A stretch of 32,738 bases of DNA from Candidatus Woesearchaeota archaeon (lineage in GTDB: Archaea > Nanobdellota > Nanobdellia > Pacearchaeales > GW2011-AR1), in NCBI GenBank assembly GCA_964600565.1, contig CAZRJS010000004.1, positions 1 through 32,738 on the forward strand, given 5' to 3'. Position numbers and translations under genes: made by a program. Under the pieces are notes generated by a model that saw only the letters and a list, made by a program, of their open reading frames with translations, was not told where the DNA came from and did not search any database. This document shows, piece by piece, positions 250-7,156 of this stretch. Each line of letters begins with the position of its first letter. Positions within the stretch are counted from its first letter, which is position 1.

Positions 250-1311
250 TTAATACGGCGACCTCCTTTTGAATGGTGGAGGATCATACTCGTCCCTTAA
301 AATCTTATTTAAATCAGAATCAAAACTGAATTTCACAACTTCTCCACATTTTGGGCATTTAAACTGAGAAGTTAGAAAAGAATATTGCTTAATTTGAAAC
401 TTAAAATTATAGAACTTCCCAAAAGCGTTAATTTGCCTATCTCCATAAGACTTAGAGAGATAAAATGCAAAAGTATCTAAATCTTGAAATGAATCTTTAA
501 CAACAGAAATATATTTGAGCACGTAATTAAGAAGAGATGATGGCGATTTTATTTTTGAGATATCTATCATACAACTCCTTCCAGAAGAAGCTTCAAACTC
601 TAATTGAACTTTAGAAGTCCTTATTACTCCAACATATAACTTCATACATTTTTTATTAGCACAATAGAATTTCTGGTCTTCTTTATTCCACCTGAGATAA
701 TTTTGGCCACAATAAGAACAATGCCCCCTATAAGTATTATCAAGATATCTTGAATAAATAATAGAATGGATATGTAAATTCCATCCCTTACCTTTGTTAG
801 TTACTTCAATTACTGAAAACCCTCCATAAATTCTTTTAGAGATATACTCTCTTCTTATGAATTTGTTAAATGAATCTCTAATATGGTATTTGCCAGCTTC
901 ATATCCTTCAAAAGTAATAGAACATTTTGGAGTAATTCCTTGTTTAGTTTTTCTTTTAGAAAATTGTTTAGTATAATTAAAATCATTAGGATAATTTTTT
1001 GGAGATATTGTTAAAAAACTCCATTGGTGCATATTATTATTTTTATGGTATTTCAAAAAAGGCAATAAACGCCTCCTAATACGTCTCTTTCTTTTTTTAG
1101 AGCAATTAGGACAAAAAGGTTTATTGCATGAATGATTTAATTCAATAGCATGAGTTCCACACCCACAACTAGCCATTATGAAATTATTTGATGGTTGACC
1201 ACATTTTTCAATAAGATTCAATGCTTTTGCAGGATAATCATACTTTCTCAAATGTGAACTTATTTCTAATATGTTAAAAGAAGGACGCTTCGCGTCCTGT
1301 TGAGAAATCAT
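250..1311 (-). CDS. rep: HUH-superfamily rolling-circle replication initiator (Rep_1/IS91-like) with several Cys clusters
   Basis: Motif 1 FLTIS, motif 2 EVT...WNLHIH, motif 3 YVLKY. N-terminal CNKPFCPNC, internal CSYC...CANKKC, C-terminal CPKC. Confidence 0.8.
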   Translation of the reverse strand: MISQQDAKRPSFNILEISSHLRKYDYPAKALNLIEKCGQPSNNFIMASCGCGTHAIELNHSCNKPFCPNCSKKRKRRIRRRLLPFLKYHKNNNMHQWSFLTISPKNYPNDFNYTKQFSKRKTKQGITPKCSITFEGYEAGKYHIRDSFNKFIRREYISKRIYGGFSVIEVTNKGKGWNLHIHSIIYSRYLDNTYRGHCSYCGQNYLRWNKEDQKFYCANKKCMKLYVGVIRTSKVQLEFEASSGRSCMIDISKIKSPSSLLNYVLKYISVVKDSFQDLDTFAFYLSKSYGDRQINAFGKFYNFKFQIKQYSFLTSQFKCPKCGEVVKFSFDSDLNKILRDEYDPPPFKRRSPY

Positions 1312-1451
1312 TTTGTTTTAATCGCGAATTCCTGCCTGTAGGCAAAGGAATTCGCTTCCTCCATTTCAGAAATTTTTTGTTTGAAATTAGAGCATCTCTC
1401 TAAAAACTCTTTTACTTGGGTTTCTAACTCTTGAAAATTTTCATCAGTCAT
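1308..1451 (-). CDS. Small helical protein (47 aa) translationally coupled to rep
   Basis: ATG 1451 to TGA 1308 reads MTDENFQELETQVKEFLERCSNFKQKISEMEEANSFAYRQEFAIKTK. Its stop overlaps the rep start (ATGA). Below the ORF-track length cutoff. Confidence 0.6.
   Translation of the reverse strand: MTDENFQELETQVKEFLERCSNFKQKISEMEEANSFAYRQEFAIKTK
1324..1355. other. GC-rich stem-loop just upstream of rep; candidate double-strand origin or regulatory hairpin
   Basis: GCGAATTCC-TGCCT-GT-AGGCA-AA-GGAATTCGC forms a nearly perfect hairpin in very AT-rich DNA. Confidence 0.5.
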
Positions 1452-1510
1452 AAAAAATTTAGTGAAAGAATTTAAATATATCTAATTGCATCTTATTTGG
1501 CATACCTAAA

Positions 1511-2287
1511 ATGAATATAATGAAGACTCCTGTTGAAAATGAAATAGCAAAAGAATTTTTTCTTGATTTTGATAATACAACAAACGTTTCTAATAGATTA
1601 CGTCCAAACGCTGTGTTTAAGAAAAATCACAGATCTGTTTCCCGTTATTTTTCAAAATGGAATAGCTTGGGATATATAAAAGAAGGAACAAAGATAATAG
1701 AAAAAACAAATAAGAAAGGTACTAGTTACACTCAAAGGATTACTGTTTATATATTGAATATGAATTTTTATTTTGATTATGCTAAAGAAAAACTAAGTAA
1801 AAAGGGATTCACTGCTGTAGAAAAAGAGATTATTGAATATATCTTTTCATTTAAAGAAAATAGAGAAGTTGTTTTTAATTTTGATAACATAATTGAAGGA
1901 ATTACTGCTTTTCTTGAGAGAATTTTTTTATTTAGGGGAAGTTTTGAGTTCGAGGAAATATTGGGATTGCAATATATTAAAGGTTTTATAGTCAAACATA
2001 AAATAAGATATATTAAAAGTAAAGATATTGGAAACCAATTTGAAGAATTCTGGAAATATGGTATAAAATATGGGGCTGATTTAAGAAATAAAATAAGAAT
2101 ACTTTCTAATTTTAGCGATAAAAAATATGAAGAGATTTTATTTGGGGGAATAAAGAAATATCATCTGTTACCTTTTGTTATTCCTAACTATTCTACTAAA
2201 GAAGAAAAAGAGGAATTGTTGAGAAGATTTTCAATAATTCTAAATGAAGATAGAGCATTAAAACCTTGGGCAGGGAGATTTATTTAG
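1511..2287 (+). CDS. Hypothetical protein, probable N-terminal winged-helix regulator of the element
   Basis: 258-aa ORF divergent from the rep operon. SVSRYFSKWNSLGYI followed by a beta-wing-like segment resembles wHTH. Confidence 0.5.
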   Translation: MNIMKTPVENEIAKEFFLDFDNTTNVSNRLRPNAVFKKNHRSVSRYFSKWNSLGYIKEGTKIIEKTNKKGTSYTQRITVYILNMNFYFDYAKEKLSKKGFTAVEKEIIEYIFSFKENREVVFNFDNIIEGITAFLERIFLFRGSFEFEEILGLQYIKGFIVKHKIRYIKSKDIGNQFEEFWKYGIKYGADLRNKIRILSNFSDKKYEEILFGGIKKYHLLPFVIPNYSTKEEKEELLRRFSIILNEDRALKPWAGRFI

Positions 2288-3356
2288 AAATTATTTTTTG
2301 TTCACTAATATCTAAGCTTTCATTACCAGATTCTAACATTATCTTAATCATATTTTCCATCTTAGCCATTTTTGTTTGCAATTCTGATAGTTCTGTATTT
2401 GTCATCTGAGTATCTAATTCTTTACTTTCCATTCCTGATCTTGAAATATAAACATCTGGCATATCACTAGAAAAAGCCCAGCCATATCTATAACATAATT
2501 GATGTCTATTAATCTTAGGAGCGTAATAAGTAGCAGAGCTATGTCTAAATAAATGATAATGTATTGCCTTGTCTAATATTTTCCTGCCTAATCTTTGTAA
2601 AAATTTTCTTGTAGTCCCATAACTCTTATCATAAACTTGTTCATCAGACCTAATACCCTGTTTTTCTCTTTCTTTAAGAAATTCACTAACAGCCTCTAGA
2701 CTATATTTCCAATACAAAGAAATAGTTCTCCCTTTAGTTTTACTATATTCCTCTTTAAGTGTTAATTTAACAAAATTATTTTTGCCTTCTGGTAATTGAA
2801 TATCTTCATATCTAATATTATGAAATTCTTCTGCTCTTGCTCCAGAATCAAATAAAACAGCAATTAAAAACCTCTCAGAAGCAGATTTACACCCCTTGTA
2901 TAATTTTATCACCTCTTTTTCTTTAAGATAATCTGGGGTCTTTTTTACTCCTCTTGTATCTAGCCAATCAGTAATTTTTATGCCCTTTTCTTTTAATTTC
3001 CATTTAAGATAAATTTTAATTCCTCTTCTAATATCTACTTTAGTTGAATTTGAATAAGGCTCTCCCCTGATTGTTTTTATTTTATCAGAACTAATAGCTT
3101 TTTCAAAATTTTCTATGTCTTTCATAGTTAGCTTGTTCTCTGACTTGTTCCAAAATTCTAAAGGAATTTTTAATACATCTAAATATTTAGATTGCCTTGA
3201 TTCAGAGATTTTCAATCCTTTATTCACTTTACCTAATTCCAAATCTTCAAGAAATCTCAAAATATTTTTCTTAACAGAATCAGGGATTTTCCATTTGATT
3301 AAATTCTTTTTTCTAGAAGCAATACCTTTCTTATGAATTCTGATTCTTTTATTCAT
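2280..3356 (-). CDS. Tyrosine recombinase/integrase
   Basis: GARAEE (Arg), KTKGR (Lys), HLFRHS (HxxR), YGWAFSSDMPDVY (Trp and catalytic Tyr). Adjacent to a tRNA 3' end. Confidence 0.92.
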   Translation of the reverse strand: MNKRIRIHKKGIASRKKNLIKWKIPDSVKKNILRFLEDLELGKVNKGLKISESRQSKYLDVLKIPLEFWNKSENKLTMKDIENFEKAISSDKIKTIRGEPYSNSTKVDIRRGIKIYLKWKLKEKGIKITDWLDTRGVKKTPDYLKEKEVIKLYKGCKSASERFLIAVLFDSGARAEEFHNIRYEDIQLPEGKNNFVKLTLKEEYSKTKGRTISLYWKYSLEAVSEFLKEREKQGIRSDEQVYDKSYGTTRKFLQRLGRKILDKAIHYHLFRHSSATYYAPKINRHQLCYRYGWAFSSDMPDVYISRSGMESKELDTQMTNTELSELQTKMAKMENMIKIMLESGNESLDISEQKIISK

Positions 3357-3414
3357 AAGTATCCCACGAGGAGCCAGTTTTTAAGTCTTTCTCAAGTGGG
3401 ACACAAATGTCTCA

Positions 3415-3494
3415 CGCCCACGCCAAGAGTCGAACTTGGGTGCCTAAAAGGCCTCGCGCTCCAGGCGAGTGCAGTACCGTTGTGCCACGTGGGC
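3415..3494 (-). tRNA. tRNA-Ser(GGA), intronless, CCA not encoded
   Basis: Acceptor GCCCACG/CGTGGGC plus G discriminator; anticodon arm CTCGC-CTGGAGC-GCGAG; long variable arm GCCTTTTAGGC; T arm CCAAG-TTCGACT-CTTGG. Confidence 0.95.
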
Positions 3495-4429: not shown

Positions 4430-5395
4430 TTAATAAGGCAGAGTTTTTACCAGTCCTTCATTTTCAATTAATAAAATTTGGGATTTTTTTATTTCTTTTT
4501 TGAAATTGTGCATAATATCATTAATAGCATCTCTAAATTCTTTTTCTTTTTCATAAAATATTTGGATTACACAGTTATACTCTGAAATTCCAAAAGTAAG
4601 GGCGTTAATATTTTTATGACCTTTGCAAAATTCTCTTATTTTTGTTCTTAATAGTTCGTTATTATTTTTTAAATTTATTTTTAGTATTCCAAGATAAAAA
4701 CCTATTTTTTCTATATCAAGTAAAATTCTCGTTCCAAGAATTATCTTTTTTTTATGAAATTGCTTTAATTTATAGATTATACTTTCACTTGAAAAATTAG
4801 CTTCCCTAGCAATATCAATTATTTTTGCCCTTCCGTTTTTTTCTAATATCTTCAAAATTTTCCAATCTTTTTTATTTAATTCAAAAGATTTAGTGGGGTG
4901 AACTAAATGATATATTTTTTCTTCTCTGGAAAAACCAAATTCTTTTAGGGGAAATAACTCAAAAGAGATTGTTATGAATATAGAGTAATCTGTGATAAAT
5001 TTTTCATTTTTTTTTGTGAAGGAGTAAAATTCAGATTCAAATTCTTTTTTATCCTTAAAGATAAAATCAATGAATAAATCATAATTAGCTATTGCAGATC
5101 CCACTGAAACAACATTTTCCATCTTTTCCAATTGCTTTTGAATCTCTTTTTTTTTATCTTCAGACCCTTTTAATTTTAGCCAAACAATAATAAATTCATT
5201 ATAACCAAGTAAATCATAATTGAAGATAGTTAGATATTTTTTGATTAATCCAATTCTTTCATATTTCTTAATTCGATATTCTACTTGGTCCCTTGAAATT
5301 TCGCAATCCTTGGCTATTTTTGTTAAAGGTTCTCTATAATGATGATATAAATAAGAGAGTAATCTTTTATCTCTTTTATCTAATTTTATTGCCAT
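4430..5395 (-). CDS. Lrp/AsnC-family transcriptional regulator with two tandem HTH-RAM modules
   Basis: LDKRDKRLLSYL...IAK...VEYRIKKYERIGLI and LNKKDWKILKILEKNGRAKIIDIA...IGF repeats. Confidence 0.88.
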   Translation of the reverse strand: MAIKLDKRDKRLLSYLYHHYREPLTKIAKDCEISRDQVEYRIKKYERIGLIKKYLTIFNYDLLGYNEFIIVWLKLKGSEDKKKEIQKQLEKMENVVSVGSAIANYDLFIDFIFKDKKEFESEFYSFTKKNEKFITDYSIFITISFELFPLKEFGFSREEKIYHLVHPTKSFELNKKDWKILKILEKNGRAKIIDIAREANFSSESIIYKLKQFHKKKIILGTRILLDIEKIGFYLGILKINLKNNNELLRTKIREFCKGHKNINALTFGISEYNCVIQIFYEKEKEFRDAINDIMHNFKKEIKKSQILLIENEGLVKTLPY

Positions 5396-5540
5396 AAAAT
5401 GGGAGAGGATTATTCTTTATAAATTTTACTAAAATAATAAAATATACAGCTTTTTATTTATTATATTAGGAAAAAGATGACCAAATTTTTATTAAGGAGA
5501 ATTACCAAGGAGTATTAATTAAATTTGGAGTATAAAAAAA

Positions 5541-5762
5541 ATGGCACTAGGATTTAGCGGGAGTGGTGGAGGAATAGGAGAATTATATAAAGATTTTGTA
5601 AAAGCAGATGTAGAATCAGCTATATTAAAATATGAGAGTTTGATAAAAAAAATTCCTGAAGGAATGTTAGATATTAAAGCATATTATCAAGAAATTTTGC
5701 AAAATTTTGAAACATTAAAAGATAAGACTTCTTCTCCCAACAATTTAGAGTCTAAGATATAA
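5541..5762 (+). CDS. 73-aa protein, copy 1; candidate radical-SAM substrate or precursor peptide
   Basis: GGAG Shine-Dalgarno-like site upstream. Gly/Ser-rich N-terminus ALGFSGSGGGIG followed by a helical region. Upstream of the radical SAM gene. Confidence 0.8.
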   Translation: MALGFSGSGGGIGELYKDFVKADVESAILKYESLIKKIPEGMLDIKAYYQEILQNFETLKDKTSSPNNLESKI

Positions 5763-5780
5763 ATTTGGAGGATAAAAAAA

Positions 5781-6002
5781 ATGGCACTAGGATTTAGCGG
5801 GAGTGGTGGAGGAATAGGAGAATTATATAAAGATTTTGTAAAAGCAGATGTAGAATCAGCTATATTAAAATATGAGAGTTTGATAAAAAAAATTCCTGAA
5901 GGAATGTTAGATATTAAAGCATATTATCAAGAAATTTTGCAAAATTTTGAAACATTAAAAGATAAGACTTCTTCTCCCCATAATTTAGAATCTAAGATAT
6001 AA
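5781..6002 (+). CDS. 73-aa protein, copy 2 (N67H relative to copy 1)
   Basis: GGAGG site upstream; ends 17 nt before the radical SAM start. Confidence 0.8.
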   Translation: MALGFSGSGGGIGELYKDFVKADVESAILKYESLIKKIPEGMLDIKAYYQEILQNFETLKDKTSSPHNLESKI

Positions 6003-6019
6003 ATTTAGAAGAAATAAAA

Positions 6020-7156
6020 ATGGCAATAAGAGAAAACAGTAACATCCTGAGAGATAATAATCTAAAAACTCTTGAAGAGAAAATAGAAATTGTACCTCAA
6101 AAGGACAGGACATTAATAGAAGAACTAGAAGATTTAGAAAAAACCTATAAACTTTTTTGTTTAGCAGAAAGTAATAAAGAAGGAAGAAAGAGTTCTATTC
6201 GTTATATTGATTTATTTATTAATAATAGATGTAATTTAAAATGTAAGCATTGTTATGTTAAATATGAAGAAGAAAGTGAAGGTTTAGGTGTAGATGAGAT
6301 AAAAAAAGTTATTTCTGATTTAAAGGATTGTGGGGCAATGGTGTTTGGTATTGTGGGAAAAGAACCTTTATTGGATTGGAATAAAACAAAAGAAATTCTT
6401 TATTTTTTAAAAGAAAAGCGAAAAGAAGAACATAGATTAAGATTTGGGATTGTTACAAATGGAACTTTATTGGATGAATCTAAAGCAGAAGAATTAAAGA
6501 AGATAGATCCGACTTATATAGACTTAAGCGTTGATGGAACAAAAAAAGAGCATGAATATATTAGAGGAAAAGGACAATATGATAAGGTAATTAATGCTAT
6601 TAGAAATTTAAAGAAAAAAGGCTTGGAGAATAAAATCTTTATCAGCTATACATTAAATAAAAAGAATCAAAATGTATTCTTACCTTTAGTAGATGATTTA
6701 CAAAAAGAAGGAATAAAACAATTTTTAGTATCTCCTTATTTGACAACAGTTAAAAATGATCCTTTGGAAGTTTCTCTTAAGGATTATCTTAATTTTGTTG
6801 AGAATATTATGGAAGAATCAAAGAGAAAAAAATTCAATGCAGAGATATTCATAAAAAATGATTACACAAGTAAAAAGTATCAAGTGGAATTAATAGATAA
6901 AGGAGTAATTAATTTAAATAAACTCTTAGTAGATGATAATTATGCTTTATGGAATATTAGAGAAATAAATGGAAATAAACTCTTATTTAATATTCAACCA
7001 TGGGACACACAAAACTGGTATGGAGTAAGAGTAAGCCATGATGGTTATGTGAGCGATTGCTTTAGTATGTTTTATAGGAACTATCCTGATAGAGCAATTG
7101 GGAATGTAAAGAAAAATTCAATTAAAGAAATTCTTAAACTTTATATTAATTCTTAA
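6020..7156 (+). CDS. Radical SAM enzyme of the SPASM/Twitch-related group
   Basis: CNLKCKHC (CxxxCxxC), GKEPLL, VTNGTLL, LSVDG, HEYIRGKG. C-terminal DGYVSDC...IGNV...SIKEIL beta-hairpin remnant. Confidence 0.9.
   Translation: MAIRENSNILRDNNLKTLEEKIEIVPQKDRTLIEELEDLEKTYKLFCLAESNKEGRKSSIRYIDLFINNRCNLKCKHCYVKYEEESEGLGVDEIKKVISDLKDCGAMVFGIVGKEPLLDWNKTKEILYFLKEKRKEEHRLRFGIVTNGTLLDESKAEELKKIDPTYIDLSVDGTKKEHEYIRGKGQYDKVINAIRNLKKKGLENKIFISYTLNKKNQNVFLPLVDDLQKEGIKQFLVSPYLTTVKNDPLEVSLKDYLNFVENIMEESKRKKFNAEIFIKNDYTSKKYQVELIDKGVINLNKLLVDDNYALWNIREINGNKLLFNIQPWDTQNWYGVRVSHDGYVSDCFSMFYRNYPDRAIGNVKKNSIKEILKLYINS

Follow-up and report, generated by a model that had tools for sequence, protein, structure and literature searches.

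Radical S-adenosylmethionine (SAM) enzymes paired with peptides are a main source of new peptide chemistry. The closest described systems are the CteB/SkfB/SuiB/PapB-type maturases of peptides that are ribosomally synthesised and modified post-translationally (RiPPs), which combine a CxxxCxxC core with a SPASM-like C-terminal hairpin; membership of the SPASM/Twitch group is defined by the seven-cysteine SPASM motif, or the three to four cysteines of Twitch, binding auxiliary 4Fe-4S clusters, and a RiPP recognition element (RRE) is not universal among RiPP radical SAM enzymes, so that its absence leaves membership possible. Glycyl-radical activases act on a glycine followed by a hydrophobic or aromatic residue in a flexible segment, and the small protein GrcA/YfiD carries the same segment as its larger partner. 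In the fungal (omphalotin-type) borosins, the peptide and the enzyme that modifies it form a single fused chain. Fused as well as split borosins are reported (10.1101/2021.12.24.474128; PMC8429565). The stretch analysed here, 32,738 nt of a Candidatus Woesearchaeota genome (contig CAZRJS010000004.1; "the window" hereafter means this whole stretch), carries a radical SAM gene at 6020-7156, preceded by two near-identical small genes. Comparison of sequences places this locus in a conserved and apparently undescribed module in which a radical SAM enzyme goes together with an N-terminal motif of 12 residues. The module has no name in Pfam, NCBIfam or PADLOC, and an abstract-level survey of the literature returned neither a publication on it nor the motif strings.

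The motif, M-A-x-G-Φ-S-G-S-x-G-G-I/V (Φ, hydrophobic), begins both small proteins of the window, and in most relatives it is found on the enzyme itself. In an alignment of 59 radical SAM homologues, gathered by similarity of the catalytic domain alone and scored within their first 45 residues, the motif is present in 51 rows, degenerate in 3 and absent in 5, the window's enzyme being one of the latter; a typical homologue starts with M-A-x-G-F-S-G-S-N-G-G-I. The corresponding pattern occurs twice in the window, compared with 0 in each of 100 shuffles, and in the whole 1.4-Mb genome it is found solely at the two small genes. A scan of metagenome contigs with a degenerate-codon version of this pattern yielded 47 loci, whose open reading frames (ORFs) were extracted, compared all against all by BLAST for clustering and scanned with Pfam; viral contigs gave 0 matches to the pattern. 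In 37 of the 47 loci (36 with the module, plus L138), the motif starts only radical SAM enzymes or short ORFs directly upstream of them, and no other kind of protein. A general cellular targeting tag is unlikely for this reason, as the motif begins no other protein kind in these loci or in the genome of the window.

The search pattern admitted every synonymous codon, hence the spread of codons among its matches is not biased by it. Each of the five Gly positions draws on all four Gly codons across 47 distinct instances, and both TCN and AGY codons are in use at Ser6 and Ser8. Selection on the motif acts at the level of the peptide and not of the RNA; an RNA or DNA element as the cause of its conservation is ruled out by this synonymous spread. 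Motif variants go with enzyme clades: position 9 is Gly in the small proteins of the window and in the nearest enzyme clade (P0003-P0006, L129), and Lys in all copies of L127 and L158. Enzyme and motif are functionally linked in a specific way, as shown by a motif that is exclusive to the module, selected as a peptide, covarying with enzyme clades and, in each family locus observed (the window, L035, L165 and 36 of the 47 scan loci), located on or next to the enzyme. The start of the window's own enzyme was also considered as a decayed copy of the motif, which is not supported: its nucleotides 7-36 agree with the small gene at 10 of 30 positions, compared with 6-14 at 23 control ORF starts and an average of 8.4 across 357 in-frame windows.

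The locus consists of the following features, with coordinates based on the ORF list.

4430..5395, minus strand: double Lrp/AsnC-type protein, 321 amino acids, with two repeats of a helix-turn-helix (HTH) and a putative effector domain; divergent partner and presumed regulator.
5396..5540, no strand: divergent intergenic region of 145 bp, AT-rich, containing an 18-nt inverted repeat.
5520..6025, plus strand: tandem duplication with a 240-bp period and 2.1 copies, carrying the small gene and its ribosome-binding site.
5541..5762, plus strand: small protein, copy 1, 73 amino acids; M-A-L-G-F-S-G-S-G-G-G-I followed by a predicted helical hairpin.
5541..5576, plus strand: motif codons 1-12 of copy 1, a match to the pattern; same start as in the 51 enzyme homologues.
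5781..6002, plus strand: small protein, copy 2, 73 amino acids, with the substitution N67H.
5781..5816, plus strand: motif codons 1-12 of copy 2, a match to the pattern.
6020..7156, plus strand: radical SAM enzyme, 378 amino acids, of an uncurated family and without the motif at its own N-terminus.
6230..6253, plus strand: CxxxCxxC cluster-binding motif (residues 71-78, CNLKCKHC), invariant in both radical SAM alignments.
7058..7060, plus strand: Cys347, the sole conserved cysteine outside CxxxCxxC, in a SPASM-like hairpin.

All coordinates given for this arrangement by a first-pass annotation made from the DNA alone hold: the copies, which differ by the single residue N67/H67, are separated by 18 nt, copy 2 and the enzyme gene by 17 nt, and the presumed regulator is divergent. 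The same annotation had described the small protein as an unstructured N-terminus followed by a helical remainder, devoid of Cys and Trp. The translation indeed contains neither residue (and 4 Tyr), and an AlphaFold2 model built on a 19-row alignment has a predicted local distance difference test (pLDDT) below 50 at residues 1-7, helices at 10-37 and 43-64, and a mean pLDDT of 82.1.

Three conserved gene layouts hold 36 of the 47 metagenome loci together with the window and L035. In type A (16 loci and the window), a divergent double-Lrp gene is followed by zero to two small motif ORFs and then by the radical SAM gene; the small ORFs are present in 14 of the 17 loci and absent from L123, L134 and L152, where the enzyme has the motif (twice in L123). 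In type B (13 loci), a SIR2_2 gene lies directly upstream of the radical SAM gene and in the same orientation, its stop codon often overlapping the start codon of the enzyme gene, and the layout includes genes of an Opp-type importer; none of the 13 loci has a small motif ORF, and the enzyme carries the motif. In five of them (L126, L129, L136, L141, L144), an ABC ATPase (oligo_HPY), SBP_bac_5, two permeases, SIR2_2 and the radical SAM enzyme form a tight six-gene operon that ends with the enzyme gene, as at L129:5756-12042. In type C (7 loci and L035), a divergent TrmB-like winged-helix protein takes the place of the double-Lrp protein, and 5 of the 8 loci (L124, L128, L155, L156, L157) encode a 59-61-residue motif protein whose tail is unrelated to that of the window. 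L138, with a 35-residue motif ORF followed by the start of a radical SAM gene, is likely a variant; the other 10 of the 47 loci have no radical SAM gene and look like chance matches. L035, from a metagenome-assembled genome of Patescibacteria, is the one member among 80 loci kept from a scan of genome contigs with the enzyme alignment, which was swamped by the generic CNLxC[KR]HCY of NirJ-like genes. The layouts form clusters in a maximum-likelihood tree built from 22 complete enzymes, where they require 3 changes; shuffling raises this to 8.8 on average, and 0 of 200 shuffles came as low. The nearest row to the window's enzyme is L129 (type B, 48% identity), and the window's enzyme is in no well-supported set.

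Of the enzymes that lack the motif, four have a visible context (the window, L127, L158 and L165), and all four have two small motif ORFs upstream; at L165 (genome G267; 2480-3150), these encode peptides of 30 and 29 residues that start with M-A-G-[LC]-K-G-S-M-G-G-F and end in acidic tails, and two double-Lrp paralogues flank the module, one on each side. Split and fused forms complement each other. The co-occurrence of enzyme homologues with upstream ORFs bearing a Gly-rich start, proposed as a check in the first-pass annotation, is borne out in types A and C, and the double-Lrp protein is a conserved divergent partner that adjoins the module in 17 loci. The stretch that the annotation took for a substrate core is part of the enzyme in most relatives, which makes the window a split exception rather than the standard layout.

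We tentatively favour the view, which we put at a little under an even chance, that the motif is a site bound and modified by the radical SAM enzyme, in cis or in trans. The flexible motif would enter the active site and be modified by hydrogen-atom abstraction. The modification might take place in cis, at the flexible start of a fused enzyme, or in trans, with small proteins as carriers; the window's enzyme would have lost the motif, which would be supplied in trans by two copies of the small helical-hairpin protein. The flexibility predicted for the motif both on the small protein and on a fused homologue (P0041) counts in favour of this reading, as does the fact that the nearest solved relatives of the enzyme, by sequence and by fold, are peptide-modifying radical SAM enzymes. 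Tandem copies of the motif inside one ORF (L118, L123, L127, L158, P0040) are, by analogy, like multi-core precursors.

Such a logic would be that of the borosins, combined with radical SAM chemistry and a leaderless N-terminal site. As in borosins, the peptide is fused to the enzyme in many members (the 51 of 59 rows) and separate in others (the window, L127, L158, L165); however, the borosin enzyme is an alpha-N-methyltransferase and its peptide is C-terminal, whereas here the enzyme is a radical SAM protein and the peptide is N-terminal. Pfam detects no alpha-N-methyltransferase domain in the window's enzyme, and the likeness is an analogy of layout and not one of membership. A comparable likeness exists with glycyl-radical systems, where a radical SAM enzyme is accompanied by a small stand-alone protein sharing a segment with a larger partner. 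The glycyl-radical fingerprint is Arg-Val-small-Gly-aromatic, near the C-terminus; in contrast, the motif reads M-A-hydrophobic-G-Φ, is N-terminal and does not match it, and the window's enzyme groups with SPASM-type maturases and not with the activases.

The same distribution can be read differently: the motif might serve in docking or regulation and never be modified itself, acting as a lid, pseudo-substrate or assembly handle that the enzyme requires or is controlled by, with the substrate elsewhere, for instance a small molecule or an imported peptide, and with small proteins that supply the element or compete for it. This is unlikely in our estimate. The motif sits primarily on the enzyme (51 of 59); it is strictly N-terminal, its M-A invariant even in internal repeats; the small motif proteins upstream of all four motif-less enzymes also fit complementation in trans; small proteins of different subtypes have unrelated tails; and in five type-B loci the enzyme shares an operon with an Opp-type ABC importer and SIR2_2. 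On the other hand, the tandem motifs are hard to square with a structural lid, motif peptides as short as 29-35 residues (L138, L165) look like precursors rather than regulators, and a monomer model predicts a disordered motif that touches the core nowhere with confidence. Should the motif prove to be an unmodified docking element, it would represent a new way of controlling a radical SAM enzyme by small proteins.

Whether the two proteins bind each other was addressed by a complex prediction that took as input the window enzyme's alignment, 4Fe-4S, SAM and the small-protein alignment. The three runs scored 0.42, 0.02 and 0.67 (median 0.42), the best of 3 controls scored 0.01, the runs share at least 36% of contacts and the partner has a pLDDT of at least 53. 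Among 80 solved complexes, 58 attain the mark applied, as do 2 of 110 mismatched pairs; at 0.60 or below, it is attained by only 7 of the 80, together with both mismatches. The verdict is "weak support". The modelling of the complex, proposed in the first-pass annotation as a check, raises the odds of binding only slightly.

Several points weigh against modification of the motif by the enzyme. The AlphaFold2 monomer docks the N-terminus nowhere with confidence. The invariant M-A and the strictly N-terminal position are not explained by a simple core-peptide reading. An enzyme with the substrate in its own chain would turn over just once per protein, save for modification in trans; short of an exhaustive search, we know of no radical SAM case. 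The motif has no Cys, Trp, Tyr or Lys, the usual partners in cross-links, and its position 5 varies among F, I, L, W, Y and M; no known radical SAM peptide chemistry is therefore indicated. The window's enzyme has no RRE/PqqD domain detectable by Pfam, and in the family only 11-60 residues precede the radical SAM core. The type-B operon with its Opp-type importer and SIR2_2 would suit a substrate that is imported or a small molecule just as well. The conserved neighbourhoods, those of type A among them, contain no conserved protease or exporter, as the first-pass annotation had already remarked for the genes adjacent to the window's enzyme. Finally, near-duplicate loci from related samples (e.g., L117/L130, L120/L122, L137/L143, L126/L144/L159) mean that locus counts overstate the number of independent cases.

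The window's protein belongs to the radical SAM superfamily, with a PF04055 (Radical_SAM) match of 90.5 bits against a cut-off of 29.5 and the CNLKCKHC motif; its only other Pfam matches are Fer4_12 and a marginal SPASM (22.6 bits, cut-off 21.5). Cysteine is present in all 59 rows at four columns only, three in CxxxCxxC and the fourth, C347, after the conserved Gly of the SPASM hairpin, so that one of the seven SPASM cysteines is kept. As this is the single conserved cysteine of the C-terminal part, no auxiliary cluster is expected in the family; the C-terminal region appears to be a cluster-less remnant of SPASM, and the enzyme is not a working member of the SPASM/Twitch group invoked in the first-pass annotation. 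The family nonetheless resembles the CteB/SkfB/SuiB/PapB-type maturases in its CxxxCxxC core, in its SPASM-like hairpin and in the short ORFs with a conserved motif directly upstream. In a sequence profile search of the PDB with the enzyme, CteB (5wgg) ranks first (81.6 bits), and SkfB scores 62.5 bits. The AlphaFold2 model of P0041 (pLDDT 91.6, predicted template modelling score 0.91, residues 1-6 below 50) finds SkfB, SuiB and CteB as its best Foldseek matches (template modelling score, TM, 0.61-0.67). The family differs from these maturases in keeping one of seven SPASM cysteines, in having no RRE and no expected auxiliary cluster, and in its conserved peptide element, which is at the extreme N-terminus, free of cysteine and mostly part of the enzyme. 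None of the 73 NCBIfam matches of the window's enzyme reaches its cut-off, the best maturase model being PapB (84.1 bits against 340), and likewise none does for L129 and L131. The family thus departs from the known rules.

The missing auxiliary cluster and the one invariant free cysteine are what would favour a redox-neutral outcome such as epimerisation, a guess at the chemistry that we regard as distinctly unlikely to be right.

The small protein belongs to a family of its own. It has no Pfam match at E ≤ 0.1 and a sole NCBIfam match of 11.4 bits against a cut-off of 100, so a place in a known unrelated family, which would have spoken against the first-pass annotation, did not emerge. An exhaustive HMMER search returned 14 proteins at E ≤ 0.001, namely one near-identical variant, 8 small homologues and 5 larger proteins; 7 of the 8 small homologues begin with the motif or a shortened variant of it, and the eighth (P0106) has it at residue 15, its ORF being probably over-called. 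In P0106, the motif is followed by a shared segment, Y-R-x-F-V-x-A-D-V-E-A-G-I-x-K-Y-E-x-L; further members of the family were found in the metagenome loci and are included in the 19-row alignment, where G4, G7, S8 and G11 are invariant. Foldseek gives nothing at E ≤ 0.001 for the small protein and only generic helical hairpins at E > 1; the ESM Atlas gives no usable match, and a word-based search matches only the protein's own cluster. Three of the five larger proteins were read (P0105, P0107, P0108), and their TPR-like repeats weakly match residues 12-70 of the small protein (E 5e-5 to 7.5e-4). Homology to these TPR proteins is not accepted; the matches possibly reflect only a shared helix-turn-helix composition.

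What follows the motif differs by subtype: a helical hairpin, the unrelated tail of the 59-61-residue proteins, or peptides of 29-62 residues. The helical follower or recognition domain of the first-pass annotation is consequently not a general feature, since tails are not conserved between subtypes. A conserved motif with variable tails is also the usual pattern of leader and core, and a classical RiPP layout, in which the motif would be a short leader and the variable tail would hold the modified residues, could account for the tail positions conserved in window-type small proteins (D23, K30, Y31, L34, L59). However, in the fused majority the part played by the "core" would then fall to the enzyme itself or to a linker of ~11-35 residues that is not conserved, there is no RRE domain by which a leader could be read, and twelve residues are very short for one, which leaves this layout quite improbable.

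Homologues of the enzyme are numerous and widely scattered. A protein similarity search returned 94 at E ≤ 1e-20, the nearest beyond its own cluster being 51% identical, and their sources include Pacearchaeota, Nanoarchaeota, Aenigmarchaeota, Dehalococcoidia, Brocadia, Bacteroidales, Firestonebacteria and Magnetococcales. None of 60 relatives of the same family and order has an orthologue (best match 33% identical, E 5.1e-44), so the module is sporadic; at E ≤ 1e-60, only 1 of 400 other genomes sampled in the phylum (G267) has a member of the family. The module occurs in organisms with very small genomes, DPANN archaea and bacteria of the candidate phyla radiation (CPR), and an accessory system retained there likely matters. 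A wider version of the favoured reading, in which the family has spread horizontally among DPANN, CPR and other anaerobic bacteria, with a leaderless self-substrate in its first 12 residues and a modified peptide that is sensed or imported, is unlikely as a whole. The modified N-terminal peptide would then be a conserved signal or cofactor-like product; the divergent regulators, double-Lrp or TrmB-like, would sense it, and in type B the Opp-type importer encoded alongside would bring it into the cell. If true, no fused and split "self-substrate" system would have preceded it in radical SAM chemistry. A genome of the same order (G043) has two paralogous radical SAM genes, L006 and L029 (427 and 423 amino acids, 32-33% identical to the window's enzyme), with no motif at their start and no small motif ORF upstream; one has a 90-residue winged-helix-like ORF upstream and the other a 229-residue ORF with an HTH-like C-terminus downstream.

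The patchy spread over CPR bacteria, other bacteria and DPANN archaea, like the low identity of the best match in the 60 relatives and the single member in 400 genomes, would also suit an anti-phage or conflict system with a viperin-like radical SAM effector, a SIR2 NADase in type B, and motif proteins as sensors, antidotes or decoys. The PADLOC model pVip scores 69.8 bits with the enzyme (a model with no stated cut-off) and ThsA SIR2 scores 77.5 bits with the type-B partner. Yet the NCBIfam model viperin_w_prok reaches 62.9 bits against a cut-off of 180, below heme and peptide maturase models, and likeness to the viperin fold (TM ~0.51) is under that to the RiPP maturases. No SIR2_2 gene was found in the window's genome (86.8% complete), a Pfam scan shows no defence genes flanking the locus, whose neighbours encode RNase HII and SMC, and an operon with a solute-binding-protein importer is untypical of defence islands. 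Such a role is very improbable.

The divergent gene encodes a protein with HTH_AsnC-type and HTH_24 matches at residues 5-46 and 173-219 (Pfam). A 12-member profile of this double-Lrp protein finds Lrp/AsnC regulators as its best matches in the PDB (PH1519, 65.6 bits), compared with 27.9 bits for a NirD-like protein (4ch7), and the matches span ~120 residues of archaeal Lrp proteins. It thus shares with Lrp/AsnC (feast/famine regulatory protein) regulators an AsnC-type HTH in both halves of its 321 residues and archaeal Lrp/AsnC proteins as its best solved matches; it differs from them in that two units are fused in tandem in one chain and in that Pfam does not report the RAM domain (PF01037) at E ≤ 0.1. 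NCBIfam AsnC aligns over positions 5-120 of 153, with 65.1 bits against a cut-off of 227.

The pairing of such a protein with a radical SAM enzyme also recalls siroheme-dependent synthesis of heme or heme d1, of which the locus could be a remnant, the double-Lrp protein being an AhbA/B or NirDL-type decarboxylase and the enzyme an AhbC/NirJ-type protein: the top NCBIfam matches of the enzyme are AhbC, NirJ1 and NirJ, the double-Lrp protein weakly matches AhbA and AhbB, and NirDL (the matched PDB 4ch7) is likewise a fused double Lrp-like protein. All of these scores are nevertheless far below their cut-offs (AhbC 92.9 bits against 650, NirJ 84.9 against 515, AhbA 28.3 against 140, AhbB 25.5 against 125), the profile prefers true Lrp/AsnC regulators, and the auxiliary-cluster cysteines are absent. 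Porphobilinogen synthase (PF00490, ALAD) was not found in the 86.8%-complete genome, 11 of 14 reference genomes being positive as a control, and the shared peptide motif would be left unexplained, so that this origin is hardly credible. In view of the profile's preference for Lrp/AsnC proteins, the AhbA and AhbB scores far below cut-off and the ALAD search that found no gene, the double-Lrp protein most likely regulates transcription of the operon. The module ties this unusual protein to a defined target operon. The AT-rich intergenic DNA between the two contains an inverted repeat with 18-nt arms at 5424-5441 and 5457-5474, 89% complementary and separated by 15 nt, which could be a candidate operator for it. 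A scan for promoters and terminators gave 10 promoter-like sites compared with 12.2 expected and 0 terminators, with bacterial models applied to an archaeal host.

The pair of small genes is a tandem repeat (Tandem Repeats Finder: period 240, 97% matches, score 956). The junction between the two copies is bridged by a 93-nt contig in runs X1 (possibly the source sample) and X3; in run X4, positions 5531 and 5772 are adjoined in one contig, with precisely one unit of 240 bp missing between them, either a single-copy form or an assembly collapse, and the duplication may be polymorphic between populations.

The genome of the window comprises 1.4 Mb in 170 contigs, and the G+C content of the window is ~25%. 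Archaeal genes in the window include those of EF-1alpha with an eEF1A C-domain, aEF-2 and a Toprim/DnaG-like protein. Towards its left end, a cluster at 250-3494 consists of a Rep_1/IS91-zinc-finger replication protein (250-1311, minus strand), a phage-type integrase (2280-3356, minus strand) and tRNA-Ser(GGA) (3415-3494, minus strand), and looks like a small plasmid or virus integrated at the 3' end of the tRNA gene. The radical SAM locus lies on the opposite side of this tRNA-Ser(GGA) gene from the replication protein and integrase.

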